Source of the DNA: Mycobacteriales bacterium
Lineage (GTDB): Bacteria > Actinomycetota > Actinomycetes > JAFAQI01 > DASSKL01
Reading direction: 5' to 3'
Length of the DNA stretch: 64,000 nt
Assembly: GCA_035690485.1 (NCBI GenBank)
Contig: DASSKL010000010.1
Coordinates: 856 to 64,855 of the forward strand
Numbering within the stretch: position 1 is the stretch's first letter; each line of letters starts with the position of its first letter. The notes under the pieces are model-generated. The model had not been told where the DNA came from, made no database searches, and worked only from the letters and a program-made list of their open reading frames with translations. Below are positions 7,439 to 41,936 of this stretch, one piece after another. The translations under genes were made by a program, and so were the position numbers.

Positions 7439-7473
7439 CGAAGGTCCTCTCGGTCCGGCACGTGCACGGTGCG

Positions 7474-11007
<3,534 letters not shown>

Positions 11008-25141: not shown

Positions 25142-26931
25142 CCGGCCCGCTCCTCCAGGCGGGCGAGCTCCTCGTCGACGACCGACGGGTCGAGCTTGCG
25201 GAACACCGGCGTCGGCGCGGCCAGCGGCGTGCCGGCGACGATCTCGCGACGTTCCCAGGCCGGTACGTCGTCGTAGTCGCCGGTGATGACGGGGTACGGC
25301 GTACCGCCGTCGAGGTCGTCGGCCTCGCGGATCTCCGGCGCGGGGGAGAACCGGCCGGTGCCGCCCAGCAGCTCGTGCACCCGCTGCGCGCTGTGCGGCA
25401 GGAACGGCGCGAGCAGCGTGTTGCAGTCGCTCACCGCCTGCAGCGCCACGTGCAGCACGGTCTCCATCCGCTGCGGGTCGTCGTTCTTGAGCTTCCACGG
25501 GGCCTGGTCGGAGAGGTACTTGTTGGCCTCGCCCACGACCCGCATCGCCTCACCGAGCGCGGCCTTGAAGTGAGAGCCGTCGAGATGCCCACCGACGGTG
25601 GAAAAGCCTTGCTGCACCGAGGAAAGCAGGGCGCGGTCCGCGTCGGTGAGGTCGCCCGCGGCGGGGATGGAGCCGACGTTCTTGGCCGCCATCGACACCG
25701 ACCGGTTGACGAGGTTGCCCCAGCCGGCGACCAGCTCGTCGTTGTTGCGCCGGAGGAACTCCGACCAGGTGAAGTCGGTGTCCTGGTTCTCCGGGCCTGC
25801 GGCCGCGATGAAGTAGCGCAGCGCGTCGGCGTCGTAGCGGGAGAGGAAGTCGCCGACGTAGATGACGACCCCACGACTCGAGGAGAACTTCTTGCCCTCC
25901 ATCGTCAGGAACTCGCTGGACACGACCTCGGTGGGCAGCTGGAGCTCGCCGTAGTCCCCCGGGGTGCCGCCCTTCGCGCCACGGCCGTCGTAGCCGAGCA
26001 GCTCGGCCGGCCAGATCTGCGAGTGGAACGTGATGTTGTCCTTGCCCATGAAGTAGTAGGACGCCGCATCGGGGTCGCACCACCACTGCTGCCAGGCGTC
26101 GGGGTCGGCCCCGCGCCGGGCCCACTCGATCGACGCCGACAGGTAGCCGATGACCGCGTCGAACCAGACGTAGAGCCGCTTGTTGGGGTTGTCCTCCCAG
26201 CCGGGCAAGGGCACCGGGATGCCCCAGTCGATGTCGCGGGTCATCGCCCGCGGGCGCAGATCGTCCAGCAGGTTCAGGGAGAAACGCAGGACGTTGGGCC
26301 GCCAGCCGGTGCGGGTGCGCAGCCAGGCGCCGAGTGCGTCGGCCAGGGCCGGCAGGTCGAGGAAGAAGTGCTCGGTCTCGACGAACTGGGGCACCTCGCC
26401 GTTGATGCGGCTGCGCGGGTTGATCAGGTCGGCCGCGTCGAGCTGGTTGCCGCAGTTGTCGCACTGGTCCCCGCGGGCGCCGTCGTAGCCGCAGATCGGG
26501 CAGGTGCCCTCGATGTAGCGGTCGGGAAGCGTGCGGCCGGTCGACGGGCTGACCGCACCGGTGGTCGTCTGCTCGATCATGTAGCCGTTGCGGTAGAGCG
26601 TCTTGAACATCTCCTGCGCGACGGCGTAATGGTTGCGCGTCGTCGTACGCGTGAAGAGGTCGTAGGACAGCCCGAGCGCGGTGAGGTCCTCGACGATCAC
26701 CCGGTTGTAGCGGTCGGCGAGCGACTTGGGGGTCACCCCCTCCTGCTCGGCCTGCACGAGGATCGGCGTGCCGTGCTCGTCCGTGCCGCTGACCATGAGC
26801 ACGCGGTCGCCGGTCATCCGCCGGTAGCGGCTGAAGATGTCCGACGGCACGCCGAAACCTGCGACGTGCCCGATGTGCCGGGGGCCGTTGGCATAGGGCC
26901 AGGCGACAGCGGTGAGCACGTGGCGGGGCAT
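25138..26931 (-). CDS. metG: Methionyl-tRNA synthetase
   Basis: 597 aa; class-I HIGH motif ([12 protein letters not shown]), KMSKS-like KFSSSRG, and a CxxC...CxxC zinc knuckle. Confidence 0.95.
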
Positions 26932-27022
26932 GCATCCACCCTAGTGAGAGGCGTCCAACCACTTCGGTGGCGCGCAAACACCAGGGATGTGGCTGTCTCG
27001 ACGTGCGGATCCAACAACACCA

Positions 27023-27889
27023 CTAGTGCCGACGAGGGTGGTCGTTCTTCGCGGCCACGACCGCGGCGTAGACCTCGCGCTTCGGCAGGCCCGTCTCGCG
27101 CGCGACCTCGCCGATCGCGTCCTTGCGCGACTGCCCCGCCTGCTCGCGCGCCCGGACGAGAGCGACCAGATCGTCGCTGCTACCGACGTACGCCGCGGCC
27201 GGGGCGCCACCCACGACGAGCGTGATCTCGCCCCTGACCCCGGCGGCGGCCCAGGCGGCCAGGTCGGCCAGGCTGCCGCGGCGCACCTCCTCGTAGGTCT
27301 TCGTCAGCTCGCGGCAGGCCACCGCCGGGCGGTCGTCGCCGAAGGCCGCGGCCAGGTCGGTGACGGTGGCCGCCAACCGGTGCGGCGCCTCGAAGAGCAC
27401 CAGTGTGCGCGGCTCCGTGGCGAGCTCGGCCAGCCGCGCGCGGCGCTCGCCGGCCCGGCGCGGCAGGAAGCCTTCGAAGCAGAACCGGTCCGTGGGCAGC
27501 CCCGACACCGCCAGCGCGGTCGTCACCGCCGACGGCCCCGCGAGCGCAGTGACCGGCAACCCCTCGGCCGCGGCGGCGGACACCAACCGGTAGCCGGGAT
27601 CCGACACCGTCGGCATGCCCGCGTCGGTGACGAGGAGCACGGTCGCGCCACCGCGCAGGGCGGCCAGCAGCTCCGGCGTACGCGCCCCTTCCACGGAGTC
27701 GTAGTAGGACACGATCTTGCCGCCGAGCGTGACGTCGAGATCCGCGGCGAGGCGGCGCAACCTGCGGGTGTCCTCGGCGGCGATGACGTCGGCGGTCGCC
27801 AGCAGGTCGCGCAGCCGCGGCGAGGCGTCGGCCGGATCGCCGATCGGTACGCCGGCCAGCACGAGCCGCCCCGCGTCGTCGCTGCGCAT
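27023..27889 (-). CDS. rsmI: 16S rRNA (cytidine1402-2'-O)-methyltransferase RsmI
   Basis: Start at MRSDDAGRLVLAGVPIGD; tetrapyrrole-methylase fold; divergent to pmt, as in mycobacteria. Confidence 0.8.
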   Translation of the reverse strand: MRSDDAGRLVLAGVPIGDPADASPRLRDLLATADVIAAEDTRRLRRLAADLDVTLGGKIVSYYDSVEGARTPELLAALRGGATVLLVTDAGMPTVSDPGYRLVSAAAAEGLPVTALAGPSAVTTALAVSGLPTDRFCFEGFLPRRAGERRARLAELATEPRTLVLFEAPHRLAATVTDLAAAFGDDRPAVACRELTKTYEEVRRGSLADLAAWAAAGVRGEITLVVGGAPAAAYVGSSDDLVALVRAREQAGQSRKDAIGEVARETGLPKREVYAAVVAAKNDHPRRH

Positions 27890-27929
27890 CCGGCCATCCT
27901 GCCGCGCCGGCGGTCCTAGCATTGGCCGC

Positions 27930-29543
27930 GTGGCGACCGGGCTGGCAACGGGGGGCCCCGCGCCCGACGCGACCGCGGAGCTGCCTGCCGCCGACCAGCA
28001 CGCGCGGCTGGCCCGCATCCGCGCGCGGCTCGTGGTGCCGCTGCCGCGCGACGTGCTGTGGGGGTGGCTCGGCCCGCTGCTGGTGACCGGGCTGGCCGCC
28101 TACCTGCGCTTCCACCGGCTCGGCGTGCCGCAGGCGAAGGTCTTCGACGAGGTCTACTACAGCCACGACGCGTGGAGCCTGCTGCACCACGGCGTCGAGC
28201 TCAACGCGCACGACAACGGCCCCGGCTTCGTGGTGCACCCGCCGCTCGGCAAGTGGATGATCGCGTTCGGCGAGTGGGTGTTCGGCTACAACTCCTACGG
28301 CTGGCGGTTCTCCGCGGCGCTCGTCGGCACGCTGTCGGTGCTGATCCTCGCCCGTACGGCGCGGCGGATGTTCGGCTCGACGCTGCTCGGCTGCCTCGCC
28401 GGGCTGCTGCTGGCGCTGGAAGCGCTGGAGTTCGTGCAGAGCCGAGTCGCGATGCTCGACATCTTCCTGATGTTCTGGGTCGTCGCGGGGTTCGCCTGCC
28501 TCGTCATCGATCGTGACGACGGCCGGCGGCGCCTGGCCGAGCGTATGGAGGAGTGGCCGGCGTCGGCGCGGGGCCGCGGCCCGTGGCTCGGCGTGCGCTG
28601 GTGGCGGCTCGGTGTCGGGATCTGCGCGGGTGCCGCGTGCGCGACCAAGTGGAGCGGCGTCTGGTTCGTCATCGCGTTCTTCCTGCTGGCGTGGGCGTGG
28701 GACGCGGGCGCCCGCCGGGCGGCCGGCATCCGCCACCCGCGCCGGGCCGCGCTGCTGCTCGACGGCCTGCCCTCGATCGTCCTGCTGCTGCTCGTCCCGG
28801 CGATGGTCTACGTGCTGTCGTGGCTCGGCTGGTTCATGGCCACCGGCGCCACCGCCTGGGATCACGACAAGTTCGTGCACCCGGGGCAGGGCTGGTTCGC
28901 GCACGCCGTCGCGGTCGTGCACGGCTGGGTGAGCTACCACCGCGAGGTCTACAACTTCCACGTCCACCTCGACGCGGGCCACCCCTACAAGTCAGAGCCG
29001 TGGGGCTGGCTGCTGCTGGCCCGGCCGGTGGCGTACTTCTACTCCTCGCCGGACCTGGGCCAGCTCGGCTGCCATGCTCAGCAGTGCTCCCGCGAGGTGC
29101 TCGCGATCGGCACGCCGGCGATCTGGTGGGCGTCGATCCCGGCGCTGCTCTGGACGATCTGGGTGTGGGTCGCCCGGCGCGACTGGCGGGCGACCGCCGT
29201 GCTCTGGGGGTTCGGCGCGGGCTATGTCGTGTGGCTGGCCTTCCCCAGCCGCACGATGTTCCTCTTCTACGCGCTGCCCGCCGTGCCGTTCATGATCCTC
29301 GGGCTGACACTGGCGGCCGGCTCGTTGCTGGGCCGCGCACGAACGACGCTGCTGCGCAGACGGTGGGCCGCGGCGGCGGTCGGCGCCTTCGCCCTGCTGG
29401 TCGTGGCGAACTTCTTCTACCTGTATCCGATCCTCGCCGCGAAGGTCATCCCGCAGAGCGAGTGGCACGACCGCATGTGGTTCCGCCAGTGCACGAGCGC
29501 GAGCAGCGACCACACGGTCGAGGTCGCGCCCTGCTGGATCTAG
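27930..29543 (+). CDS. pmt: Protein O-mannosyltransferase (GT39, dolichyl-phosphate-mannose-protein mannosyltransferase family)
   Basis: GTG start at 27930; multiple TM helices; KVFDEVYYSHDAW...HPPLGKWMIAF motif region typical of PMT-family enzymes. Confidence 0.8.
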   Translation: MATGLATGGPAPDATAELPAADQHARLARIRARLVVPLPRDVLWGWLGPLLVTGLAAYLRFHRLGVPQAKVFDEVYYSHDAWSLLHHGVELNAHDNGPGFVVHPPLGKWMIAFGEWVFGYNSYGWRFSAALVGTLSVLILARTARRMFGSTLLGCLAGLLLALEALEFVQSRVAMLDIFLMFWVVAGFACLVIDRDDGRRRLAERMEEWPASARGRGPWLGVRWWRLGVGICAGAACATKWSGVWFVIAFFLLAWAWDAGARRAAGIRHPRRAALLLDGLPSIVLLLLVPAMVYVLSWLGWFMATGATAWDHDKFVHPGQGWFAHAVAVVHGWVSYHREVYNFHVHLDAGHPYKSEPWGWLLLARPVAYFYSSPDLGQLGCHAQQCSREVLAIGTPAIWWASIPALLWTIWVWVARRDWRATAVLWGFGAGYVVWLAFPSRTMFLFYALPAVPFMILGLTLAAGSLLGRARTTLLRRRWAAAAVGAFALLVVANFFYLYPILAAKVIPQSEWHDRMWFRQCTSASSDHTVEVAPCWI

Positions 29544-29574
29544 CCCGGCCGGCCGCCGGCGGCGAGGTTCGCCA

Positions 29575-29952
29575 CTAGCCGACCACCATCAGCACGTTGC
29601 TCTCGTGGTCGCGAAGCCAGAACATCGGGGGCACCGGACCGCCCATGCGCTGCACCTCGGCGTCGACGTCGACGCCGGCCCCGCGCAGCTGTGCGTGGTA
29701 GCCGTCGACGTCCTCGGTGTGCAGGCTGATGCCGGTCTCCCGGCCGCCGGTCTTGGCCTCCGGGTGCGGGGGCGCGAGCGCGATGGTCGTCTCCTGACCG
29801 GGCAGCCCGACCTCGATCCAGCGGTCGGGGCCGGGGCCGAACGGGATGTCCACCCGCTTCTCGAAACCGAGCTTGCCGACGTAGAAGTCCACCGCGGCGT
29901 CCTGGTCGGCCATCGGGACGATCACCGTCGCGATCTTGCTGGCTTGTGCCAT
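29575..29952 (-). CDS. VOC/glyoxalase family protein
   Basis: Start at MAQASKIATVIVPMADQDAAVDFYVGKLGFEK (internal Met); 125 aa. The upstream part of the listed ORF merely translates the att/tRNA-like repeat. Confidence 0.7.
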   Translation of the reverse strand: MAQASKIATVIVPMADQDAAVDFYVGKLGFEKRVDIPFGPGPDRWIEVGLPGQETTIALAPPHPEAKTGGRETGISLHTEDVDGYHAQLRGAGVDVDAEVQRMGGPVPPMFWLRDHESNVLMVVG

Positions 29953-30090
29953 GGCTCCTCCTGCTCGTCGAAGCTGTCCGCAAGTAGACGACGAAGCGCG
30001 GCAGAAGTCATCGGGCTCGGGGTACGCCGGCAGAAGACTTACCTCTGCGCCACCCTGGACCTGGCACGGCCCGGCTCGGGTCAGAACCGA

Positions 30091-30123
30091 CGTGCGGGTG
30101 GTGGAGCTGAGGGGATTTGAACC
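30091..30123. repeat. att direct repeat (distal copy): 33-bp perfect duplicate of the tRNA-Ala 3' end plus 8 nt of 3' flank
   Basis: cgtgcgggtggtggagctgaggggatttgaacc is identical to 40112-40144. No D-arm or anticodon arm lies upstream, so this is a partial tRNA copy and not a gene. Confidence 0.85.
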
Positions 30124-30142
30124 ACTCGTCGCTCGCTTCCTA

Positions 30143-30168
30143 CCTGCGACTATACGCAAAGTCGCAGG
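30143..30168. other. 9-bp inverted repeat hairpin just inside the left att site
   Basis: cctgcgact-atacgcaa-agtcgcagg; could be an Int/Xis arm-type site or a terminator for the convergent cargo gene. Confidence 0.3.
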
Positions 30169-30307
30169 TCAGCGCGGTGGTCGTGAGCAGCCGGCGGTCG
30201 TTCGACGCCGTTGTACGCCGTGCCGTTATGCCCCGGGGCATAACGGATGATCTTGTTGCGGGGCGGCGAGACGTCCGATCGTCCGTGCGTTGATCAAGAG
30301 AACGGCA

Positions 30308-30883
30308 TCATTCAGAACCCGGCGCGTCGGGGGTCAAACCGAGCCGGTGCCCGGAGCCGCGCAGCCAGTCAATGACCCGCGCCCGAGCAACCCCGTGTCC
30401 GGCCGGCAGCAGCGCGGCGCGGTCCAACAGCGTGCCGAGATCGGCCAGGCGGGCCTCGAGAAGCGCATAGGCAAACGCGAAGTCCTTCTCCCGGTGTGCC
30501 GCGAGCTTCGCGACAATCAGGTCGTGTCGCTCCAGGCACAGCGCCGTCGCCGGCTCGGCCGCTCTGGCGTCGAACCGCACCAGTCGCTCCCGCCAGCCGA
30601 CGGGCAAGATCGCCGTGCTCACGTCGACGCCCTGGGCGTAGTAGGCGAACGTCTGGTGAAACGACGAGAGCTCGCCGATGGCGCCGTCGACGAGGTTGGC
30701 CTTCGCGGAGTCGTCGTCGTCGAAGAAGGCAAGATCCGCTTCGACCGACAGCCACGCGATCTCTGGCAGATCGTCCTCGCCGAAGGTGCCGAGGATCGCC
30801 TGTGAGCCGAGGACGAGGATGTCGGGGTCTCCGGCGACGCGAGCTGCCGCGCGGAGCACGTGCGCCAGCTCCTCGCGTCTCAC
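30308..30883 (-). CDS. Nucleotidyltransferase-fold protein, AbiEii-like putative toxin
   Basis: GTG start at 30883 with a GTGA overlap to the upstream HTH gene; hG[GS] motif (ILVLGSQAILG) followed by an acidic [DE]h[DE]h site (LSVEADLAFF) as in pol-beta-superfamily NTases; 192 aa. Confidence 0.5.
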   Translation of the reverse strand: MRREELAHVLRAAARVAGDPDILVLGSQAILGTFGEDDLPEIAWLSVEADLAFFDDDDSAKANLVDGAIGELSSFHQTFAYYAQGVDVSTAILPVGWRERLVRFDARAAEPATALCLERHDLIVAKLAAHREKDFAFAYALLEARLADLGTLLDRAALLPAGHGVARARVIDWLRGSGHRLGLTPDAPGSE

Positions 30884-31404
30884 CGCACCTTCGGCGAGTT
30901 CGCCGCCCCCAGCACCCGACGCCGTTCCTCCTCGGACAGCACCCCGGCGAAGGGGTTGTTCTGCCGCAGCTCGCGGGATCTGGGCGACGGTGAGGTCAAT
31001 GCGGTCAGCAGCTCGGTCAGCGGGCCTTCCAGCAGCCGCTCCCACTCCCGCATCCAGATTCGCGCGGCCCCACGCGAGGAGGACTCCCGCATCCGGCGCA
31101 GGTTCTCGCGAGCCAGCGCCCGTGCGCTGTCCGGATCTTCCGCTATCCGGCCGGCGATCGCATGCGCCAGCAGCAACGACCGCACCTGATCGCGAGTCAT
31201 CCGGCGTGCACCTGCGGCAACCACGTCGACGTCGCGCTGACGGACCCGACGGTGCTTACCCACCCATGAACACGGCAGGACGCCTTGGTCGCACAGGTCA
31301 ACGACGTGCTGGCGGGACACGCCCAACCGCGCCGCGGCCTCGCCAGTGCTCAACAACTCCTCGCCAGTGTCGGCGGCCAGGCGTTCGGCAACGGTCCCTC
31401 TCAC
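30880..31404 (-). CDS. HTH_17 (MerR/excisionase-type) DNA-binding protein with a C-terminal helical domain; AbiEi-like putative antitoxin/regulator
   Basis: GTG start at 31404; LSTGEAAARLGVSRQHVVDLCDQGVLPCSWVGKHRRVRQRDV helix-turn-helix; 4-nt overlap with the downstream NTase gene; C-terminal domain contains RSLLLAH (Rx5H). Confidence 0.5.
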   Translation of the reverse strand: MRGTVAERLAADTGEELLSTGEAAARLGVSRQHVVDLCDQGVLPCSWVGKHRRVRQRDVDVVAAGARRMTRDQVRSLLLAHAIAGRIAEDPDSARALARENLRRMRESSSRGAARIWMREWERLLEGPLTELLTALTSPSPRSRELRQNNPFAGVLSEEERRRVLGAANSPKVR

Positions 31405-31532
31405 GGCAACTACGCTAATGCCTAACCACCAAAAACACAATGATGGAGCGGCGATATTGGGTTTTGATCGGGTCGCAGGCACCATGCACGGGCGTCTGTC
31501 GAAGCCTGCGGCAGTAGCGGACGCGCACAAGG

Positions 31533-31991
31533 TCAGGACAGATCCAGATCCTGCTTCATCGCGGCCAGCTCATCCGCCGCCGAGAGGCGCAGCAGATCGT
31601 CCTCACGCTTGTGCCGCAGGAGGCTGTCCACGAGGACGCGCCGATGAGTCCCCACCATCCGATAGCCGATCTTGCCGTCGTTCAGCAAACCGATGAGGTA
31701 GGGGCGGGAGACGTTGAGCAGGTCGGCGGCCTGCTGGGTGGTCAGCTCGGCCGTCGATGGGACGACGGCGACCCCGTGACCGGCAGCCATGTGCGCGAGG
31801 ATCCGCACGAACACCCTGAGCGCTGCCGCGGGCACGAGCACCGTCTCCCCGTCGTCCTCCTCCACCCTCAGGTGGATCGACTCGGGCAGCCGCCGGTGTC
31901 GGGTGAGGTAGGACTGCAGCGCCGGTAGGGCCTCGGCAGCACGCGTGGCGTCGTCCTTGCTCGGCAAGATCGTGTCGAGCGCTGCGGTCAT
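31533..31991 (-). CDS. Hypothetical protein with a C-terminal HTH_17 DNA-binding domain (element regulator candidate)
   Basis: 152 aa; C-terminal LTTQQAADLLNVSRPYLIGLLNDGKIGYRMVGTHRRVLVDSL; the N-terminal roughly 80 aa has no recognisable family. Confidence 0.5.
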   Translation of the reverse strand: MTAALDTILPSKDDATRAAEALPALQSYLTRHRRLPESIHLRVEEDDGETVLVPAAALRVFVRILAHMAAGHGVAVVPSTAELTTQQAADLLNVSRPYLIGLLNDGKIGYRMVGTHRRVLVDSLLRHKREDDLLRLSAADELAAMKQDLDLS

Positions 31992-32440
31992 GACTCACCT
32001 CCTCCGCAGTCGCAGTATCCGCAACAAACGAAACAGACGCAATGACGCGTCCGCCGCGATCTTCAGGGGCCATCGGCACCCAAGCAGCCCCCGCGGCCAC
32101 CGTGCTCGAGGCCGCCAACCCGAACGGGAGTGGGTCCGGCGCTTCCCCCCGGGAGGCGAGACACCGGCCCCGTATCGGAGATACCGGGGTGTGTTCCGTC
32201 TGGTTTGTGTCCTGGGTCAGGTTCGTTGGGTCACATGTTCTTGGTGATCTCGTTCGCGTTCGGGATCTTGTTGTCGTGGGTGTTGGTGTCGTGTGAGCCC
32301 GTGATCGCATTCTGGAGATTGTGGTCACTGGCGACTCCTGTGCCGAGATTGGCTCCCTGCACTCCTTCCGCGTCGATTCCGCCAGGCGGAACACCAGCCC
32401 CACTCGGCTCGCTCGAGCTTCGATCAGTCCGCGGCCCGCG

Positions 32441-32488
32441 CGGGGACGCAGGCGGGGACGTCAGCGGGGACGCGGGCGGGGACGCGTG
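32441..32488. repeat. Four tandem 12-bp iteron-like repeats (CGGGGACGNNNG) upstream of the relaxase gene
   Basis: cggggacg recurs at 32441, 32453, 32465 and 32477 (exact 12-nt period); two more copies at 32695 and 32707; sits in an 850-bp non-coding region. Confidence 0.65.
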
Positions 32489-32498
32489 TCGGGTTGCC

Positions 32499-32606
32499 GG
32501 ACAAGGTGTTGGCCAAGGATCTGGACAAGGTCGTCACGCCTGACGAGCAGAATCCGGGGCGCTTTCGGCTTGCGGCCAAGGGTTCGGATAAGGATCTGGA
32601 CAAGGT
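32499..32606. repeat. Direct repeats AAGGATCTGGACAAGGT (x2) / GGACAAGGT (x3) inside the candidate oriT/regulatory region
   Basis: aaggatctggacaaggt at 32515-32531 and 32590-32606; ggacaaggt also at 32499-32507. Confidence 0.6.
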
Positions 32607-32694
32607 ACGGGCGCCAGAGTCCTCGCCGTGCAGACGGACCGGTGGCCTGATTTCAAGATCCCCCCACGCTCGAAACCGGCCCCGGGGGCGCCGG

Positions 32695-32718
32695 CGGGGA
32701 CGTCGGCGGGGACGCCCC
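32695..32718. repeat. Second cluster of two 12-bp CGGGGACGNNNG iterons about 130 bp before the relaxase start
   Basis: cggggacgtcgg cggggacgcccc at 32695-32718. Confidence 0.6.
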
Positions 32719-32845
32719 GAGCTTGCAATGCGCGCATGGATCTCGACCCCGGTGCGCCCACCCGCCGTCCCCGCCCGCCTGCCGCCCCCTCCCCGTCGAC
32801 CCGGGCTACCGCTGCGAGGGGTGGGCGGCGGTGATCTCGGTCGAG

Positions 32846-35701
32846 ATGCTGACCGGCGGACCCGGCGCGGGGGACTACTACCTGCGCCGGCAGGCGGACT
32901 GCGCGGCTGACTACTACGTCGGTCGGGGCGAGTCGGAGGGCGTGTGGGTAGGTGCCGGCGCCGAAGCGCTCGGCCTGACGGGTCCGCTGGGTCCAGGCGG
33001 CGAGCATGTGCTGCGAGCGATGCTCGCCGGCCGCGCTCCGGACGGCCAGGTGTTGGTGGCGGCGGTGCTTCGGGCGGTTCCGGCGTCCCGGCTGCCCGCC
33101 GGCCCACTCGTGGAGGCGGTCAGGGCGGTCGCGATCGGCCAGCAACTGACCCCGTCCGAAATCCTGCCGCGGACGCCGGATGCGCGGTACCGGGTGCTGG
33201 AACGGCGGATGGACGGGCCGCGTGGCGCGACGGCGACCGTGGGCGCGGAGGACGCCGAGCGGCTGTGTTCGGCGGCCGGCCTCGACCCGGTCGCGGTGTT
33301 CCGGGCGGCGGACGGCACGGACCGGTTCAGCCCGGCGCTCGCGGCGGCCGACGGCCGAGTGGACATTCGCCGCGCTGGGATCGACGTGACCATGTCCGCG
33401 CCCAAGTCGGTTTCCGTCCTCTACGGGCTCGGCTCGCCGGCGGTCGCCGGGCAGGCGCGGGCCGCCCACGACGCCGCGGTCGCCGAGGCACTGCGCTACC
33501 TGTCGCGGGAGGCGGGGCACGGGCTGCGCGGGCATCAAGGTGATGGGCGGCGGGCGGCGCGCATCGGCACCGACGGGCTGATCGCGGCGGGGTTCACCCA
33601 CCGGACGAGCCGCGCGGACGACCCGCAGTTGCACACCCACCTGGTCATCCCGAACGTCGTACGGGGTGAGGACGGCCAGTGGAGCGCGGTGGACTCCCGG
33701 GCGGTCTACCGGCACGCCACCACGGCCTCCTACCTGTACCAAGCAACGTTGCGGGCCGAGCTGACCCGCCGGCTCGGCGTCACGTGGACCGCCCCCAAGC
33801 GGGGCATCGCCGAGATCGTGGGGGTGCCGGCTGGGCTGCGCCGGCTCTTCTCGACCCGCAGCGTCCAGATCAGCACCGAACTGGCCCGAACCGGCCGGGA
33901 CGGCCCCGCTGCGGCGCAGGTCGCCTGCCTGGCCACCCGCCCCGCCAAGTCCCACACGCCGGAGGTCGCGCTACGGGAGCGCTGGCAGCTGCGCGCCGCC
34001 GAGGCTGGTCATCCGGGCGAGCAGCTGATCGACCAGACGGTCGGCCGGCAGATCGAGTTGCCGGCGTTGCCGACGTTCGCCGAGATGAGCGACAGGCTGG
34101 TCGCCCCGACCGGGCTGACCTCGATGCAGACCAGCGTGGACCGCCGCGATCTGCTGCAGGCCGTCTGCGAAGAACTGCCGCCCGGCGCACCGGTCTCCCT
34201 CGAGCTGGTCGACGCCTACGCCGACGCCACCCTCCGCTCCACGGAGTTGGTGCGGCTGGCAGGCGCCGCCGCGGTGGTTGAGGATGGGCCGCGCTGGTCC
34301 ACAGCTGAACTGCTGGCCACCGAAAAGCACGCCTTCACCGTCGCCGCCACGCTCCGTGCCGCCGCCCCCGCCCGCCCGATCCGCTCTATCGCTTTGCGCG
34401 GCCTCAATGGCGAACAGGCGGCGCTGGTCCGCGGATTGCTCGAGCATACAGGCGGACTGACGATCGTCGTCGGCCCGGCGGGCGCCGGTAAGACCGCCGC
34501 GCTGAAGACCGCCGTCGAGGCATGGTCCGCGGCCGGCGTACCCGTGCACGGCGCGACGGTCGCCGCGCTCACCGCCCGCGAACTATCCCGGGCCACCGGC
34601 ATGCCCACAACTACGTTGACCCGCCTGCTTGCTGACGCCGACCGGCCTACCGCCGACGGTCACCCTCCGGCAGGCCTGCCGGCCGGGTCGGTGCTGGTCG
34701 TCGACGAGGCCGGCATGGTCGACACCCGCACCCTCGTCCGGCTTCTCGACCACGCCGCGGCCAGCCGAGCGAAACTCGTGCTGGTCGGGGATCCGGCCCA
34801 GCTGCCGGAGATCGGCGCCGGCGGGCTGTTCACCGCGCTCACCCGCCATCCCGACACCATCCGGCTGCAGGGCAACCAGCGGCAGCACCGACTGTGGGAA
34901 CGGGTCGCGCTCGCCCAGCTGCGCACCGGTGACATTGCCGGGGCCCTGGATGCCTACGAGGCGCACGGGCGTATCCACACGGCCCCGACCGCGGTCGACG
35001 CGCAGGTCGAGATCGTCAGCGACTACCTCGCCCTCCGGGACCAGACAGTCCATCCCGACCGGGTGCTCATGCTCACGTCCACCCGCGCCGACACGTGCGA
35101 GCTCAACGAGCTGACCCGCGCCCGGCTGCGCGCCCACGGCCGGCTCGCCGGCCCCGCACTCACCGTCATGACCGCTGACGGGGACGTACGTGACTTCCAG
35201 GCCGGCGACGAGGTGGTGGTCATCCGCAACGACCACAGCCGGGGGCTGCTCAATGGCACCCGGGCCACCGTCACCGCCGTCGACCCCCACGCCCAGTGGC
35301 TCGCCTTGACCACCCGCGACGGCGCCGGGCACACCGTCGGCACCGACTGGCTACAGGAGGATCGACTCGCCCACGGTTACGCGCTCACCGTCCATAAGGC
35401 CCAAGGCTCCACCGTCGACCACGCCCTGCTCTACGGCACCGGCGCCCTCAGCCAGGAAGCCGGCTACGTCGCCCTGTCCCGTGGCCGCGAGAGCAACCAC
35501 CTCTACGCCGCGAACCCCGACCTCGACGAGCTGTACGCCGTCGAGCGGCAAGTACCGGACTGGCTCGCCGACCGGCTCGAACAGTCAGCCCGGCAAACGC
35601 TCGCCCTCGAGCAGTACCCGGACGGCGGATCTCATCCGGACGGGCTGTTCGACTGGCTGCGAGATGACGGGCGCGGCCACGACCTCGGGATCGGCCGATG
35701 A
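32846..35701 (+). CDS. traA: MobF-family conjugative relaxase fused to a RecD-like helicase (TraA/TrwC-like)
   Basis: N-terminus MLTGGPGAGDYYLRRQ...DYYVGRGESEGVWVGAGAEALGLTG; ...TMSAPKSVSVLYG...; HTHLVIPNV three-His motif; C-terminal VVGPAGAGKTAAL Walker A, VVDEAGMV and YALTVHKAQGSTVDH helicase motifs. An alternative GTG start lies at 32831. Confidence 0.85.
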   Translation: MLTGGPGAGDYYLRRQADCAADYYVGRGESEGVWVGAGAEALGLTGPLGPGGEHVLRAMLAGRAPDGQVLVAAVLRAVPASRLPAGPLVEAVRAVAIGQQLTPSEILPRTPDARYRVLERRMDGPRGATATVGAEDAERLCSAAGLDPVAVFRAADGTDRFSPALAAADGRVDIRRAGIDVTMSAPKSVSVLYGLGSPAVAGQARAAHDAAVAEALRYLSREAGHGLRGHQGDGRRAARIGTDGLIAAGFTHRTSRADDPQLHTHLVIPNVVRGEDGQWSAVDSRAVYRHATTASYLYQATLRAELTRRLGVTWTAPKRGIAEIVGVPAGLRRLFSTRSVQISTELARTGRDGPAAAQVACLATRPAKSHTPEVALRERWQLRAAEAGHPGEQLIDQTVGRQIELPALPTFAEMSDRLVAPTGLTSMQTSVDRRDLLQAVCEELPPGAPVSLELVDAYADATLRSTELVRLAGAAAVVEDGPRWSTAELLATEKHAFTVAATLRAAAPARPIRSIALRGLNGEQAALVRGLLEHTGGLTIVVGPAGAGKTAALKTAVEAWSAAGVPVHGATVAALTARELSRATGMPTTTLTRLLADADRPTADGHPPAGLPAGSVLVVDEAGMVDTRTLVRLLDHAAASRAKLVLVGDPAQLPEIGAGGLFTALTRHPDTIRLQGNQRQHRLWERVALAQLRTGDIAGALDAYEAHGRIHTAPTAVDAQVEIVSDYLALRDQTVHPDRVLMLTSTRADTCELNELTRARLRAHGRLAGPALTVMTADGDVRDFQAGDEVVVIRNDHSRGLLNGTRATVTAVDPHAQWLALTTRDGAGHTVGTDWLQEDRLAHGYALTVHKAQGSTVDHALLYGTGALSQEAGYVALSRGRESNHLYAANPDLDELYAVERQVPDWLADRLEQSARQTLALEQYPDGGSHPDGLFDWLRDDGRGHDLGIGR

Positions 35702-35919
35702 GGCTGCTGACCATCCCCGAAGCGGCCACGGAGCTGCACGTCCCCGAAGGCTGGCTGCGCAAGAAGGTCACCGCTCGCGAAGTGCCCTTCACCCGCCTGG
35801 GCAAGCACGTCCGCTTCACCGACGACCAACTACGCGCCATCGTCATAGCCGGCGAGGTACTACCGATTGTCGTACCCGCCAGGCAAGGCCTCAGCCGGCG
35901 CGCCAGGAAGCTCGCATAA
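35698..35919 (+). CDS. xis: Excisionase/Xis-like HTH_17 DNA-binding protein
   Basis: 73 aa; LTIPEAATELHVPEGWLRKKVTAREVPFTRLGKHVRFTDDQL; ATGA overlap with the relaxase stop. Confidence 0.7.
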   Translation: MRLLTIPEAATELHVPEGWLRKKVTAREVPFTRLGKHVRFTDDQLRAIVIAGEVLPIVVPARQGLSRRARKLA

Positions 35920-35974
35920 CATGCTCGGCCAGTTTGCAGGACCCTGTCGGTTCCTTGAGGGTGCACTCGGAATT

Positions 35975-36008
35975 GGATCCGGACACCACTGTTGCGGTGT
36001 CCGGATCC
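35975..36008. terminator. Bidirectional hairpin terminator between convergent xis and the secreted-protein gene
   Basis: Perfect 13-bp inverted repeat ggatccggacacc-actgttgc-ggtgtccggatcc, 56 nt after the xis stop and 46 nt after the stop of the minus-strand gene. Confidence 0.45.
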
Positions 36009-36053
36009 AATGGCCGGATTGCTACGCCCTACCAGTTGGGTGAGTGTGCACTC

Positions 36054-36902
36054 TCAGATGCTGGCGCACGCATCGCCGCGGTCGTAGTACGGCGACGGCG
36101 TTTCCCACCAGGTCGCGTCCCACACGGTCGAGTAGTTGACTGGGCCGTAGACGACAACGACTTGTTGCCCGTACGTCACGTTCGTGTCAGACGAGTTCGC
36201 GCCTCCGGTTCCTGGGTGACAGGACGTTGCGCTGATTCCTTCGTTGGACACGGACACATGGCCCTGGTCGACCCAAGATCCCAAGTACGTGTAGGTGCCC
36301 TTGATGTAGTTGGATCCGCCGACCAAAGTCGTACCCACGCATATGGTGCCGCTGGACGTAGTGGCAGCACAGGCTGAGCCGACAGGAACAGACGCCGGGG
36401 AAACCTGTGTCGGCGACTGCGTCTCGGACGGGGATGGGCTAGCACTTGCTTGATCCGCAGACGGGCTAGCACTCTCTTGCGGCCCAGACGCGGAAGAGTT
36501 GGAATTCGCTTGCGCCCCCGAGGGCACTGGCACCGACTTCGGATCGCAACTGATCACACCGGCGACGGCCAAGGTCGTTATGTCCGCAGGCATGCCCTTG
36601 ATCCCGCTGGCGCCGCTAACGGGGATGTACTCGAGGTTCTCAAGGTGGCAACCGGAGGGAGCAAGCTCGTCCCATTTCGCGCTTCGCATGCTTGCTTGCT
36701 GGTCGGCTGCCCAGGCTTCCCACGCGCTTCTCGGCGCTGCTGCCGACGGCGCGGCCGGAAGTGGGTTTGCGTCCACGCTGGAAACAGGTTGCCCCGTTGG
36801 CGTCGGAGGCGAACCATCTGCAGCCGCGGGTGCAATGTCTGCGCCTCCCACGAAACCCAACGCGACGGCGAACGTGACTACGAACGACTTGCGACGAGCC
36901 AC
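36054..36902 (-). CDS. Secreted Cys-containing protein of unknown function (two domains joined by a Ser/Pro/Gln-rich linker)
   Basis: GTG start with AAGGGGG RBS; signal peptide VARRKSFVVTFAVALGFVGGADIAPAAA; low-complexity linker SGPQESASPSADQASASPSPSETQSP; C-terminal domain with about 5 Cys; lower-GC codon usage. Confidence 0.5.
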   Translation of the reverse strand: MARRKSFVVTFAVALGFVGGADIAPAAADGSPPTPTGQPVSSVDANPLPAAPSAAAPRSAWEAWAADQQASMRSAKWDELAPSGCHLENLEYIPVSGASGIKGMPADITTLAVAGVISCDPKSVPVPSGAQANSNSSASGPQESASPSADQASASPSPSETQSPTQVSPASVPVGSACAATTSSGTICVGTTLVGGSNYIKGTYTYLGSWVDQGHVSVSNEGISATSCHPGTGGANSSDTNVTYGQQVVVVYGPVNYSTVWDATWWETPSPYYDRGDACASI

Positions 36903-36943
36903 TGCAACCACCCCCTTCTTGTCAACAATTGGACTTAGGTGTC

Positions 36944-38062
36944 TCAACTCGATGGACGAGTCTCTGGCGCGTTCAGCGTGATCGGGCCTGGCAGCGCGGC
37001 AACGGCGATGCTGTCGTCGAGTCCCCATTCCAGTCGGGCACTTCCCTGGCCGGCGGGGACCTCGATTTGCATCGCGAATGTGGCGCTGTCCCCGGCCTTA
37101 ATGCCGTTTGTCTCGTCGCAGTTGAGGCGGTACTGGCCGACGGTGGCGTCAGTTGGCTGGTCGTAGCCGGCACCCATGTATTGGGTGTAGATCGGACAGC
37201 GGTTGAAGATCACGTCCCGATCGGACGGATTGTGGAGGGTAACCGTGTAAGTGACCGTGTCTCCGCTGGTAGCCGCGCGGGGAGCGCTGATCGTGATCAC
37301 CAAGCCGTTCAACTCCGAGGTGGCCGCCGCGGGCGTGGTGAACGCGCTGTACGTGAAGGCCGTATGCCGAAAACCGTTGCACGGAGTGTCGGTCGCAGCG
37401 GGGAAGGCGATTGTCACCTCGCCGCCCCCCGGGGCCGGCACCCGGAAGGCTGTCGCGGTGGCATTGGATTCGCCAGAAGGCATTGGGGGCAACGTGTCGC
37501 ACTCGTCTGAGTAGCTGAACACGATCGCCGCACGCTCCCCAGGCTTTAGGTTTGCCGGCGGGGCGGTGTGCACATGAGGGTCAGCCGTCACGGTCGTCCC
37601 GCTGACCCGACCACCGCCGGTCAGTTCCACGCTTATGTCAGAGGCATAGCCGGACAGCGTGCAGGGCTGGCTGCCACGATTGGTGAACCAGAGCAGAAGG
37701 CGATGATCGTGAACACCAAGGCCCGCGTCGACTGGTTCGGCGCGACCTTGCATTTCCGCGGCGCCGCAGGCTGGATACTCGGCCGAGTTGTCGACTTCTA
37801 CGGGCTGGTTGACCCATGGCGCCGGCTGCGCGCTTCCCATACGGATCGGGACCGGCTCAGTAGAGTGCCCGGCGAGGCTGTAGGTAGAGAGGACGGCGAC
37901 GACGGCGGTCGTCGTGGCCGTCGCCGTTAGAACCGCGACAGCGCGGCGAGAGCGGCGTCGGCGGTCGATACGCCGGTGCAGTTCTTCCAGAAATTCCCCC
38001 TGTACCGCAACGACGGGAACGTCTTCGAAGGCACGAACTAGCTCACGTTCTGCATCGTTCAT
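36944..38062 (-). CDS. Anti-sigma factor with extracytoplasmic DUF4232-like domain
   Basis: ATGA overlap with the sigma gene; N-terminal cytoplasmic segment MNDAERELVRAFEDVPVV..., a single TM (AVAVLTATATTTAVVAVLS), and an ectodomain with HRLLLWFTNRGSQPCTLSGY typical of DUF4232. Confidence 0.55.
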   Translation of the reverse strand: MNDAERELVRAFEDVPVVAVQGEFLEELHRRIDRRRRSRRAVAVLTATATTTAVVAVLSTYSLAGHSTEPVPIRMGSAQPAPWVNQPVEVDNSAEYPACGAAEMQGRAEPVDAGLGVHDHRLLLWFTNRGSQPCTLSGYASDISVELTGGGRVSGTTVTADPHVHTAPPANLKPGERAAIVFSYSDECDTLPPMPSGESNATATAFRVPAPGGGEVTIAFPAATDTPCNGFRHTAFTYSAFTTPAAATSELNGLVITISAPRAATSGDTVTYTVTLHNPSDRDVIFNRCPIYTQYMGAGYDQPTDATVGQYRLNCDETNGIKAGDSATFAMQIEVPAGQGSARLEWGLDDSIAVAALPGPITLNAPETRPSS

Positions 38063-38556
38063 TTCGGTTGCTCCGCTTCCCGCAATGGCGAGCCGAGCCG
38101 TTCTCTTAGCGTGCGCAAGGCCTTGGCCGACTGGCTCTTCACGGTGCCGACGCTGCATCCCAAGGCCGCTGCGGCCTGTTGTTCGGAGTAGTCAGCCACA
38201 TAACGCAGCGCCAACACCGCTCGCTGACGCGGAGGCAAAGCGGCGAGCGCGTCCCACACCTCGAAACTCCGGCCGACCGGCTCATAGAATTGCTCCGGAA
38301 CTACGGCGACCAGGCGTTCCAAGCGGCGACGTCGCCACCAACTGATCCTCTGGTTCACCATGACCTGACGGACGTACCTGGCCGGGTCCCCGCTTGCGAG
38401 CACACGAGACCACCGGGTCCCGACCTGCAACAGCGCTTCCTGCACCAAGTCGTCGGCATGCGCGGAGTTGGCGGTCAGCGCATATGCGAAGCGAGAGAGT
38501 TCCGGCATACGGACACGCACGAACGCGTCGAACGACGCTCGTTCGTCGGCGTCCAC
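38059..38556 (-). CDS. ECF (sigma-70 family group IV) RNA polymerase sigma factor
   Basis: 165 aa; region 2 (ADDLVQEALLQVGTRWSRV...YVRQVMVNQRISWWRR) and region 4 HTH (QRAVLALRYVADYSEQQAAAALGCSVGTVKSQSAKALRTLR). Confidence 0.8.
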   Translation of the reverse strand: MDADERASFDAFVRVRMPELSRFAYALTANSAHADDLVQEALLQVGTRWSRVLASGDPARYVRQVMVNQRISWWRRRRLERLVAVVPEQFYEPVGRSFEVWDALAALPPRQRAVLALRYVADYSEQQAAAALGCSVGTVKSQSAKALRTLRERLGSPLREAEQPK

Positions 38557-38760
38557 GCTTCACCACCTTCCGCCAGTAGCACGCACGAGGAGGTGGAAAG
38601 GTTGCCCGGGCCGACCAGCAGATTGGGCGACAGGGTTGCCGGACCAGGCAAACGTTCCTGAAAGCGACCTCCGTAGTCAGGTGTACGGCCCCCGACTCCG
38701 GGCCGAATCGCCATTGTCAGTCAGACCGGGCATGCTGCGCCCGAACGAGGAATGGCACCC

Positions 38761-40020
38761 CTATGCCGGCTTCTCCTCAAGCACGAGCACCGCCGCCTCG
38801 ACGCTGTCCCCTCCGGTTGCGGTGACCACCTTGCGACCGCCGAGTGCCCGGTCGATGGCGAGGTCGGCTATCTCGTGGGTCTGGAAGAGCAGCCCACCGT
38901 AGACGTCGACGGTGATCTGGATGCTCTTGTGGCCGAGCCGCTTCTGGATCACCGGCAGGGGGACGCCAGCCGAGATCAGCCAGGCGGCGTGCGTGTGCCG
39001 CAGGTCGTGGAACCGCGGCGTCTTCGCCAGTCCTTTGGCCTGCGCGGCCTTGATCGCGCGCTGCCATCCGCCGTACCAGTTGCCGTGCACCCGCCGGCCG
39101 CCGCCGCGGGCGCTGAACACCAGATCGTCCGGGCCTCGACCGGCCACGACGCGGCGCAACGCCTCGACGACGCGCGGGGCCAGGGTGATGCGCCGCCGGG
39201 ACTCGCGCGTCTTCGGCTTGCCGATGTAGGCGACGCCGTGCTGCCCGAGCGCGAACTCGCCCCGGCCGTTGCTCTTCCAAGCCCGGCGGATCGTCAGCAT
39301 CGCCGGTGAGCCGTCGATGTTGAGGTCCTTGACCTTGAGCGCGGTGAGCTCGCCCCAGCGCAGCCCCGTGCCCACGGCGACAGTCAGGAAGTCGCGGTCA
39401 ACCTCGGGCATGCACGAGCGCAGGAGCGCGAACTCCTTCTCGGTGAGGAAGACCTTGTCCTCGTCGTCCTCAGTGTCGTCGTCGGTCGGCGGCAGTTTCA
39501 CCCCTTCGCAGGGGTTGCGGCCGATCAGGCCCTTCTCCACCGCGCTCTTGAGCACGGCCGCCAGCAGGCCGTGGTAGTTGGCGATCGTCTTCGGGCTGGC
39601 GCCGGCCTTGCGCCGGGCGACGATCCAGTCGCGGTCGTCGTCCGACGTCAGGTTCTCGATCGTCGGCTGGCACCGCTTGATCTCGGTGAGCCAGCCGTCG
39701 AGCGACGTCAGCTGCTGGACGTACTTCGTCTGCGTGTCCGGCCCGGCGCTGGTGAGCCGGCGGACGTACGCCGTGCCGAACTCGAGTAACGGGCGCTCCT
39801 CCGCCGGCTCCTCCCACGCCTCACCGAAACCCATGCCCTTGACCCAGCCGTCCGGCCACCGCTGACCGGCGGCGTCGACGAGCGCCGCGAACTTCAGCGC
39901 CGCCCGGCGGTCGGCGAACGTCTCGGACTGCCATGGTGCGCCGCGGCTGCCACCGAGCAGCCACTGCACCTTGTAGGTGCGCTCGCCGGACTTGTGCTTG
40001 CGCGTGACGACGCTCGCCAT
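38761..40020 (-). CDS. int: Tyrosine-type site-specific recombinase / phage integrase
   Basis: ATG 40020 with GGAGG 6 nt upstream; N-terminal MASVVTRKHKSGERTYKVQW AP2-like domain; catalytic region with R...HDLRHTHAAWLISAGVPLPVIQKRLGHKSIQITVDVYGGLL (R, HxxR, Y). Lies directly 3' of tRNA-Ala. Confidence 0.9.
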   Translation of the reverse strand: MASVVTRKHKSGERTYKVQWLLGGSRGAPWQSETFADRRAALKFAALVDAAGQRWPDGWVKGMGFGEAWEEPAEERPLLEFGTAYVRRLTSAGPDTQTKYVQQLTSLDGWLTEIKRCQPTIENLTSDDDRDWIVARRKAGASPKTIANYHGLLAAVLKSAVEKGLIGRNPCEGVKLPPTDDDTEDDEDKVFLTEKEFALLRSCMPEVDRDFLTVAVGTGLRWGELTALKVKDLNIDGSPAMLTIRRAWKSNGRGEFALGQHGVAYIGKPKTRESRRRITLAPRVVEALRRVVAGRGPDDLVFSARGGGRRVHGNWYGGWQRAIKAAQAKGLAKTPRFHDLRHTHAAWLISAGVPLPVIQKRLGHKSIQITVDVYGGLLFQTHEIADLAIDRALGGRKVVTATGGDSVEAAVLVLEEKPA

Positions 40021-40111
40021 GACCGCCTCCAAGATCAACCGTTATGCCTCGGTTATGCCTCGGGAGCGACCGTAGAGCGGCCCTGCGACAGTTTTCGCAG
40101 GTCAGAGCCTT

Positions 40112-40144
40112 CGTGCGGGTGGTGGAGCTGAGGGGATTTGAACC
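40112..40144. repeat. att direct repeat (tRNA-proximal copy) overlapping the 3' 25 nt of tRNA-Ala
   Basis: Identical 33-mer to 30091-30123. Confidence 0.85.
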
Positions 40145-40196
40145 CCTGACCCCCTCGATGCGAACGAGGTGCGCTACCGGACTGCGCCACAGCCCC
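40120..40196 (-). tRNA. tRNA-Ala (anticodon CGC)
   Basis: 77-nt cloverleaf GGGGCUGUGGCGCAGUCCGGUAGCGCACCUCGUUCGCAUCGAGGGGGUCAGGGGUUCAAAUCCCCUCAGCUCCACCA; G3:U70 Ala identity pair; anticodon loop UUCGCAU; encoded CCA. Confidence 0.9.
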
Positions 40197-40252
40197 GCGG
40201 TGCTGTCCAAGTTACACGAACGCGGCGCCACCCCTGCGTGGACGCAGCGGCG

Positions 40253-41146: not shown

Positions 41147-41324
41147 GATCGCGGCGTAGATCAGCCCGCTCAGGACAGCCTCCAGACCCTTGTACCTACC
41201 GCCGCTGAACGCTAGTCAGGCCCTCCGCGTGCGGCACGCATCTGGCCCGGTGTGTCGCCGGGTTCCTCACCGGCCGAGGGGACAACGGCGTCGTATCTCG
41301 GCTGGTTCCTCATCCAGCGACCGA

Positions 41325-41933: not shown

Positions 41934-41936
41934 GGG

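Follow-up and report, generated by a model that had tools for sequence, protein, structure and literature searches.

The 64,000-nt stretch analyzed here (the window; contig DASSKL010000010.1 of assembly GCA_035690485.1, Mycobacteriales bacterium) is part of the chromosome of an uncultured actinobacterium from soil. Near its middle, a gap of some 850 bp (32000-32845) separates two divergent genes, encoding a 152-amino acid (aa) excisionase-type helix-turn-helix (HTH) protein (31533-31991, minus strand) and a MobF relaxase-helicase (32834-35701, plus strand). The relaxase stop is overlapped by the start of a gene for a 73-aa excisionase/BldC-like winged-helix protein (35698-35919, plus strand). 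A first-pass annotation had described the gap as iteron-rich and as either an origin of transfer (oriT) or relaxosome site, or a plasmid-like replication or partition site. The gap lies within a 10-kb integrative mobilizable element (IME) in a tRNA-Ala gene, and from the features of its sequence we predict that it is likely the oriT of this element and probably controls the relaxase operon as well. The oriT part of the annotation is thus supported, mainly by evidence that it had missed (a conserved hairpin-GTGT motif and the recurrence of the repeat arrays), and the replication or partition part is not.

The relaxase (955 aa, GTG start) is of the TrwC type, with matches to Pfam TrwC (1.9e-73) and AAA_30 (2.5e-51) and a score of 232 bits against the NCBIfam MobF model (cutoff 100). 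It aligns to the relaxase domains of TrwC (1OMH) and TraI, the HxDxxxxHxH block included; R388 TrwC is the best structural relative of its relaxase domain (6.5e-25), and the alignment to F TraI covers about 215 residues only (79 bits). The N-terminal VISV.. is common to relatives, and the YY pairs in the N-terminus do not vary among 30 relatives. After an identical copy, the nearest relative is 56% identical, and plasmid relaxases reach at most 41% identity.

Eight related loci with an identical HTH protein (L001-L008) are 99.6-100% identical to the window and therefore useless for covariation. Among the matches listed by scans of genomes and metagenomes with the relaxase alignment, most were distant (25-45% identity), and L092, L109 and L120 were close enough for comparison. 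Homologues of the 73-aa protein led to L173 and L175, and also to L172, L174 and L176, in which no relaxase upstream region was found. In L009 and L010 the gene order is relaxase, small HTH_17 gene, integrase; in L011 the HTH_17 gene follows the relaxase and the integrase lies upstream. Open reading frames (ORFs) for VirD4/TraG-like coupling proteins, with the Walker A sequence GPPRSGKT, directly follow the relaxase in L013 (7027-8586) and L054 (7036-8418), as judged from translations alone. If these calls are correct, the relaxase clade also occurs in self-transmissible elements with a type IV secretion system (T4SS), which would be candidate helpers.

The hairpin and the nick-like segment

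At 32172-32197 the gap contains the sequence GTATC-GGA-GATAC followed by CGGGGTGTG, a feature that the first-pass annotation had overlooked. GTATC-GGA-GATAC (32172-32184) is the conserved core of a larger inverted repeat, CCCC-GTATC-GGA-GATAC-CGGGG (32168-32189, plus strand), and the comparison of nine elements delimits a nick-like single-strand segment next to it, CGGGGTGT/GTTCC (32185-32197, plus strand; a slash marks a nick throughout). The motif GTATC-N(2-13)-GATAC-N(2-4)-GTGT occurs once per locus in the copies of the window element and in L009, L010, L011, L092, L109, L120, L173 and L175. Elsewhere among 187 loci it was not matched, with about 0.05 chance matches expected according to our composition-based estimate. 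Its distance to the relaxase start ranges from 111 to 1219 nt, and 8/9 elements have it on the relaxase strand.

The GTATC/GATAC arms are invariant across the nine elements, and (G/T)GTGT begins 3 nt after GATAC in 9/9 of them (4 nt if the leading G/T is excluded). The center of the hairpin is variable, consisting of a 2-3-nt loop or of an extra 5-bp stem (GGCGC/GCGCC, TGCGC/GCGCA or GCCGC/GCGGT); as the changes compensate, the inner stem is kept. These compensating changes were read by eye, because MAFFT mis-registers short against long hairpins, and involve no formal pair count or covariance model. Conservation is one-sided, with the GTGT flank kept and the opposite side of the hairpin not.

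The nick-core variants in the family are GGGGTGT-G, GGGTGT-G, CGGTGT-G, AGTGTGT-G and CTGTGT-C. They resemble the F nick region, GTTTTTGC-GTGGGGTGT/GG, and its R100 variant, GTAGTGTGT/ (oligonucleotide table, PMC3074121), a likeness that covers 7-8 nt only. TrwC requires the proximal arm of the inverted repeat IR2 together with the 9 single-stranded nt that lead up to the nick (PMC4176350). As the layout in the window is that of MOBF nick regions, we predict by analogy that the plus strand is nicked between 32192 and 32193.

The hairpin might alternatively be a terminator or regulatory stem-loop in a region that serves transcriptional control only, with the arrays as operators and the true nick elsewhere. 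On the minus strand it follows the stop of a 43-aa ORF in the window and of an ORF in L011, and a terminator-like site was scored at 32185-32198; at L009, however, no minus-strand ORF ends near the hairpin. A terminator would also not be expected to keep invariant arms and a one-sided GTGT while its inner stem changes, among elements whose relaxases are only 49-61% identical (N-terminus, six relatives with the motif measured), and the flank matches the nick sequences of F and R100. The part of this explanation that concerns the arrays is taken up below.

On the 3' side of the motif lies a lower-GC, G + T-rich and A-poor stretch (32198-32400, plus strand), delimited by composition, which is a possible melting or helicase-loading zone. 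The GC content is 0.55-0.62 at about 32200-32400 versus about 0.72 in the surroundings, in agreement with the AT-richer stretch noted in the first-pass annotation at 32220-32390. The 150 nt after the motif have a G + T content of 0.71 and a GC content of 0.55 in the window; in 6/6 relatives tested the G + T content of the same stretch is 0.59-0.73, and GC is lowered in several. The sequence of these 150 nt is unalignable among the relatives, without conservation beyond the motif.

Phased repeat arrays in the gap and in relatives

Further toward the relaxase, the gap contains four arrays of 8-mers on the plus strand, all in 12-bp phase and detected with repeat tools and an offset scan. Array A1 (32441-32488), also evident by direct reading, consists of four copies of CGGGGACG starting at 32441, 32453, 32465 and 32477. 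Array A2 (32683-32716), 118-151 nt before the relaxase start, consists of a degenerate copy, CGGGGGCG, at 32683 and of CGGGGACG at 32695 and 32707. Arrays B1 (GGACAAGG, GGCCAAGG, GGACAAGG; 32499-32530) and B2 (GGCCAAGG, GGATAAGG, GGACAAGG; 32574-32605) are two triplets of GGNNAAGG. The repeats listed in the first-pass annotation, namely four phased 12-bp units at 32441-32488, two more copies at 32695-32718, a 17-mer at 32515-32531 and 32590-32606 and a third site at 32499, are all present: the units are CGGGGACG, the 17-mer is AAGGATCTGGACAAGGT and the third site is GGACAAGGT, and the GGACAAGG copies turn out to be members of the B triplets. Repeat tools further identified a lone inverted copy of the A motif (32766-32773, minus strand; CGTCCCCG on the plus strand), which brings the A and B arrays to 13 direct sites and one inverted copy. 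The short palindrome cgtcacgcctgacg (CGTCA-cgcc-TGACG), reported earlier at 32541-32554, exists as well; direct reading places it 9 nt to the left, at 32532-32545, and no conservation of it was found in the relatives.

Across the 64 kb, CGGGGACG is not over-represented (16 found, 15.4 expected). Seven of the 16 copies lie within 333 bp, a span for which the rate elsewhere predicts about 0.05 (Poisson P <1e-10, our estimate), and GGACAAGGT occurs 5 times versus 0.2 expected. Between 32400 and 32830, the number of positions that repeat at >=7/8 identity is 29 for an offset of 12 bp and 26 for its second harmonic at 24 bp, and 0-4 for each of the remaining offsets from 6 to 30. The window-wide rate predicts about 2 such positions per 430 nt, and this region, the only one in the window with the 12-bp periodicity, ranks top in the 64 kb. 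The repeats in the gap are real, and chance is excluded.

Arrays of 12-bp-phased 8-mers are also present upstream of related relaxases, 50-400 nt from the relaxase start, in L009, L011, L012, L013, L092, L097, L108, L109, L113 and L173. The units differ among loci: CGGGCAAC (four to five copies) in L011; GGGCAAGG or GGCTTGCC in L009, in five or more arrays in both orientations; GGTGAAGT in L092; GGGGACGCT in L109, the same 7-mer as in the window A motif; GGGTACG (three copies, 91 nt before the relaxase) in L012; GTCGAGG (three copies) in L013; nine sites of the GATCAAGG type (GATCAAGG, GATCGAGG or GGTCAAGG) in L097; and two exact copies of TGGACAAGG with one degenerate copy in L173, all in 12-bp phase. 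L108 has two copies of AGGGTGACGTT(C) with an 11-12-nt unit, and L113 two copies of CTGTCGTCATCC with a 12-nt unit. The A motif of the window is thus common to L109 and nearly to L012, and the B motif is common to L173, L097 and L009. Upstream of the relaxases of 137 loci, the 12-bp offset gives 82 matches versus 45-55 at other multiples of three, and 10 of the 18 occurrences of YAAGG-N7-YAAGG in 1.4 Mb lie upstream of these relaxases.

The position of the arrays, 50-400 nt before relaxase starts, is one that operators would occupy, and the distribution of the L012 motif points the same way. Its GGGTACG arrays occur in both orientations at three places (2131-2165, 7385-7450 and 8990-9052), which include a site before the relaxase, one in the intergenic region upstream of a gene pair resembling ssb and parB and one near the end of the locus without gene context; two of these sites are intergenic and upstream of genes. 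This pattern suggests operator use and looks like that of a small regulon governed by a single regulator that binds the repeats. An oriT may at the same time serve in regulation, however; in R388, TrwA has both roles. The oriT model can accommodate a purely regulatory role of the arrays, and such a role is no true alternative to it. Taking this together with the evidence on the hairpin, we consider it rather unlikely that the gap is a transcriptional control region only. A scan for sigma-70 promoters found none. An Rfam scan of 31000-34000 gave a chance snoRNA match only (E=0.84), and a comparison of the gap DNA with 72,556 plasmids gave no match.

Repeats of this kind could also reflect amino-acid repeats, if the gap were coding. 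A 43-aa ORF (32231-32362, minus strand) within the G + T-rich stretch shows codon-like periodicity, with GC values by codon position of 0.50/0.39/0.80 (P=3.5e-4), and is annotated as a gene by some metagenome pipelines; over the L009 arrays, one pipeline calls a 159-aa ORF. The plus-strand partner of the 43-aa ORF is a hydrophobic ORF of 103 aa from an ATG at 32235, a similar periodicity is found at 32494-32640 (P=0.003), and every repeat spacing is a multiple of three. Over the arrays, this periodicity follows automatically from the 12-bp units, and the presence of the array motifs in both orientations (L009, L011, L092, L012) indicates DNA sites and not a reading frame. For the 43-aa ORF no Pfam match was obtained, a search of 5.8 billion proteins returned its own cluster only, and six-frame translations of the relatives held no related peptide. 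Its Shine-Dalgarno-like GGAAGGA directly abuts the GTG start, a poor start context. The earlier statement that the gap lacks convincing ORFs was therefore nearly right, apart from the codon-like periodicity of this ORF, the reality of which is doubtful, and a conserved small protein in the gap, which the first-pass annotation had named as an observation that would contradict its proposal, was not found in these searches. A coding function for the gap, with the 43-aa ORF, the 103-aa ORF or a repeat peptide being real, is very unlikely. In the leader of the 152-aa HTH gene, a terminator-like stem of 10 pairs with a T-rich tail (32032-32055, minus strand) could terminate the transcript of the 43-aa ORF or attenuate the HTH gene.

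The surrounding island

The element carrying the gap spans 30124-40111, about 10 kb, inside a perfect 33-bp direct repeat of the 3' end of tRNA-Ala. The left copy (attL, 30091-30123) is identical to the right copy (attR, 40112-40144), which overlaps the 3' end of the tRNA-Ala(CGC) gene (40120-40196, minus strand). Contig L179 is 99.8-99.96% identical to 25575-30123 and 40100-43973 of the window and lacks the element, with 30123 joined to 40100. A second empty-site contig from the same species, L187, is near-identical on both flanks and lacks the same segment. Because of the repeats and the near-identical contigs with an empty site, the element is a mobilizable island and not a plasmid. It has a relaxase of its own, and Pfam and NCBIfam searches identified no coupling protein, VirB4 or mating-pore gene in it, a combination that characterizes an IME. 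The genes between the repeats have a lower third-position GC content than the host genes, and the flanking genes sampled are housekeeping genes (MetRS, RsmI, PMT, Mfd, enolase, GlmU, IMPDH, MoeA).

Phased direct repeats beside a lower-GC stretch resemble iteron origins, the nick site could in principle give rise to rolling-circle replication driven by the relaxase, and tandem repeats about one helical turn apart are found in ParR-type centromeres. The gap could accordingly be read as a vegetative replication origin or partition centromere of the excised circle. Against this, Pfam and NCBIfam searches of the element identified no Rep, primase-polymerase, ParA, ParM, ParB or ParR gene, the 8-mer units at 12 bp are not iterons of 17-22 bp, the gap matches no plasmid DNA and the element is maintained by integration into the tRNA gene, as the empty sites illustrate. 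We therefore do not retain the replication or partition site of the first-pass annotation, and regard such a function as highly improbable.

A tyrosine integrase gene (38761-40038, minus strand; Pfam Phage_integrase, 4.4e-24) adjoins the tRNA, and the island encodes three excisionase-type HTH_17 proteins. Xis-type proteins bind tandem direct repeats, so that the arrays might be integrase arm-type or Xis sites of attP, used in excision and integration. The arrays are, however, at a distance of 2.3-2.6 kb to attL and of 7.4 kb to attR, and it is another motif, GTTATGCC, whose copies are restricted to the two att-proximal arms. Of this motif, the 64 kb contain four copies versus 0.27 expected, none of them more than about 130 bp from an att site. 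Two copies form an inverted pair near attL (30225-30244), and the remaining ones are part of a tandem 11-bp repeat, GTTATGCCTCG (two copies, 40041-40062), between the integrase start and attR. The GTTATGCC copies are probably the integrase arm-type sites, and their location places the recombination sites at the ends of the island and not in the gap. It is exceedingly unlikely that the arrays serve as attP sites. Just inside attL and attR (30143-30172 and 40082-40105), a similar small inverted repeat, CCTGCGAC...TCGCAGGTCAG, is found in the same orientation and may be a binding site for a recombination protein.

Among the remaining genes, a 216-aa HTH_17/AbiEi_4-like gene (Pfam/NCBIfam) is followed by one for a DUF6036 nucleotidyltransferase (domain search), both on the minus strand at 30308-31530. 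Together they have the appearance of a toxin-antitoxin or addiction module of the AbiE type. Calls for the 216-aa gene vary among contigs (106, 174, 201 or 216 aa) despite near-identical DNA. Downstream of the 73-aa gene, the minus strand encodes a 324-aa protein without family match (36054-37028) and a 404-aa DUF4232 protein with an extracytoplasmic function (ECF) sigma factor directly upstream of it (pair, 36944-38556); the DUF4232 protein is a possible anti-sigma or membrane partner of the sigma factor. In L003, an otherwise identical copy of the island diverges completely from the equivalent of window position 36470, downstream of the 73-aa gene, where it has a DDE_3 transposase. The cargo end is thus variable between strains.

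The predicted origin of transfer and its place among known systems

At the level of sequence, the gap has the features of a MOBF-type oriT: an adjacent cognate relaxase, an inverted repeat with a conserved flank, and likeness to a nick core. As in F and R100, an inverted repeat is followed by 8-9 nt that end in GGGGTGT/G (F) or AGTGTGT/G (R100), both of which occur as variants in the family, and the relaxase-helicase is of the TrwC/TraI type. As in R388, a proximal hairpin arm and about 9 nt of single strand would position the nick (PMC4176350). The GTATC/GATAC arms, in contrast, are unrelated to the arms of F, no TraY, TraM or IHF-type sites were recognized here, and F and R100 are plasmids, whereas the window element is an actinobacterial chromosome island in a tRNA gene.

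In R388, moreover, a DNA-binding accessory protein works close to the promoter of the relaxase gene, as is proposed here; the R388 nick sequence (...TTGTCT/A) differs from the window core. In contrast to R388, the accessory candidates here are winged-helix proteins of the excisionase type and not ribbon-helix-helix proteins, and their putative sites are direct 8-mers in 12-bp phase. In oriT2 of the enterococcal plasmid pAD1, an inverted repeat and short direct repeats with a periodicity of about 11 bp give relaxase specificity; its relaxase is of the MOBC family, and phylum and sequences differ from those of the window.

Winged-helix proteins of the Xis/BldC type probably bind to the arrays and so control the relaxase operon or the relaxosome. 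The best candidates for the putative binder are the 73-aa protein and the divergent 152-aa HTH protein. The latter matches Pfam HTH_17 (1.4e-9) and TIGR01764 'excise' (1.1e-10, above cutoff), and no homologue of it was found in the loci of the relatives. The 73-aa protein matches HTH_17 (1e-6) and TIGR01764 (7.2e-8), and its homologues are named excisionase family. Its structural model has a pLDDT of about 90 over residues 1-50, and its best matches are BldC, Pukovnik Xis and RdfS (Foldseek probability 1.0, E-values 4e-3 to 0.2, modest because the domain is small). Genes for HTH_17/'excise' proteins accompany the relaxases in 43 loci, in several arrangements, and L173, which encodes a protein 67% identical to the 73-aa protein, has TGGACAAGG in 12-bp phase. 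BldC and mycobacteriophage Xis proteins form head-to-tail filaments on variable numbers of direct repeats (PMC5859096). The identity of the 73-aa protein to BldC is 27-33%; the repeats bound by BldC are AT-rich, 9 bp long and spaced by about one turn, unlike the GC-rich 8-mers every 12 bp beside the relaxase.

RdfS of ICEMlSymR7A is a further small winged-helix protein of the excisionase family, encoded in a transfer operon near oriT and relaxase, which forms head-to-tail oligomers, binds attP and its own promoter and is needed to mobilize a cloned oriT (PMC11963761). The modeled 73-aa protein superposes on RdfS with a TM-score of 0.64 and a root-mean-square deviation of 1.3 A. In contrast to the arrangement in the window, RdfS is encoded upstream of its relaxase (RlxS), and no clear repeat consensus is known for it.

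Clustered direct GC-rich repeats of 7-9 bp are also the cis site for conjugative transfer in the clt loci of Streptomyces. In actinomycete plasmids, clt consists of direct 8-bp repeats bound by TraB, and examples include nine 9-bp repeats in pJV1 and four 7-bp repeats in pWTY27 (PMC4447253, PMC3583192). Clustered direct repeats of 7-9 bp are present in the gap and the host is an actinobacterium, so the arrays could be recognized by an FtsK/TraB-type double-stranded DNA translocase that moves the island as double-stranded DNA. In L177 (4485-7827), a 65%-identical homologue of the 73-aa protein is encoded in a pSAM2-like operon consisting of a RepSA/FtsK fusion, xis and a convergent integrase; the relaxase of the window thus holds the position of the replication/translocation protein in classical actinomycete integrative elements. 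However, TraB acts in clt systems without a relaxase or nick, and no FtsK_SpoIIIE/TraB match was found in the element or among the window genes sampled. The arrays instead track MobF relaxases, including those of L013 and L054 with their coupling-protein-like ORF after the relaxase, two different motifs occur in one region, and the L012 motif marks at least two promoter-proximal regions. A clt-like locus moved in this way is very improbable, and we return to the gap as the predicted oriT of a MobF system.

In the oriT model, the relaxase would bind the GATAC arm and the adjacent single strand after excision of the island, and would nick the plus strand at about GGGGTGT/G (32192/32193), in the manner of F TraI and R388 TrwC at their own sites. 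The lower-GC, G + T-rich 200 nt on the 3' side could ease melting and loading of the helicase domain. In contrast to F, the relaxase gene is 3' of the predicted nick on the nicked strand, and would for this reason enter the recipient first, together with the arrays. The A and B arrays would act as head-to-tail platforms for the 73-aa protein, co-transcribed with the relaxase, or for the divergent 152-aa protein, which might act as a repressor or activator of the relaxase-xis operon, give the relaxosome its shape, or do both. Excision could thereby be coupled to transfer, as RdfS does in Mesorhizobium elements.

Several observations weigh against this model or parts of it. The short hairpin of the window has no unusual stability (z = -0.46), analogy alone places the nick at its exact position, and in L173 and L175 a C, not a purine, follows GTGT. 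The layout is unlike that of F and R388, in which transfer of the tra genes comes last and the accessory sites are located 5' of the nick. No helper conjugation system was found among the window genes sampled, and L010 has the hairpin and no array. For the putative link between the arrays and either candidate binder, co-occurrence is mixed: L012 and L109 have arrays and no HTH_17 gene within the DNA available, and L175 encodes a 69%-identical Xis-like protein, yet has different repeats at 11-bp spacing. For BldC and Xis-type proteins, moreover, a spacing of roughly one turn is reported, which is shorter than the 12 bp found here.

We consider it unlikely, if worth stating, that the arrays are dual-purpose, such that Xis/BldC-like filaments at 12-bp spacing couple excision to nicking or the repeats are clt-like too. 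In the latter case the island could use both routes, with single-stranded DNA leaving through a T4SS from the F-like nick and double-stranded DNA through TraB/FtsK. If the dual-purpose reading were true, these elements would form an undescribed MobF mobilizable-island family in Actinomycetota, in which the relaxase occupies the operon position of RepSA in pSAM2-type elements.

A review from 2017 included no MobF-encoding mobilizable island and one actinobacterial island only (PMC5704250). Few oriTs are known for integrated elements, and in the literature searched none was found for actinobacterial MobF relaxases. The 26-nt hairpin-plus-nick motif in nine elements and the recurrent 12-bp-phased arrays provide a concrete oriT model. 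It is useful for annotation and for oriT databases and leaves the concepts of the field unchanged. The motif could be used to search soil metagenomes for such islands, and the model could help explain how small islands move in bacteria in which T4SS conjugation is thought to be rare.

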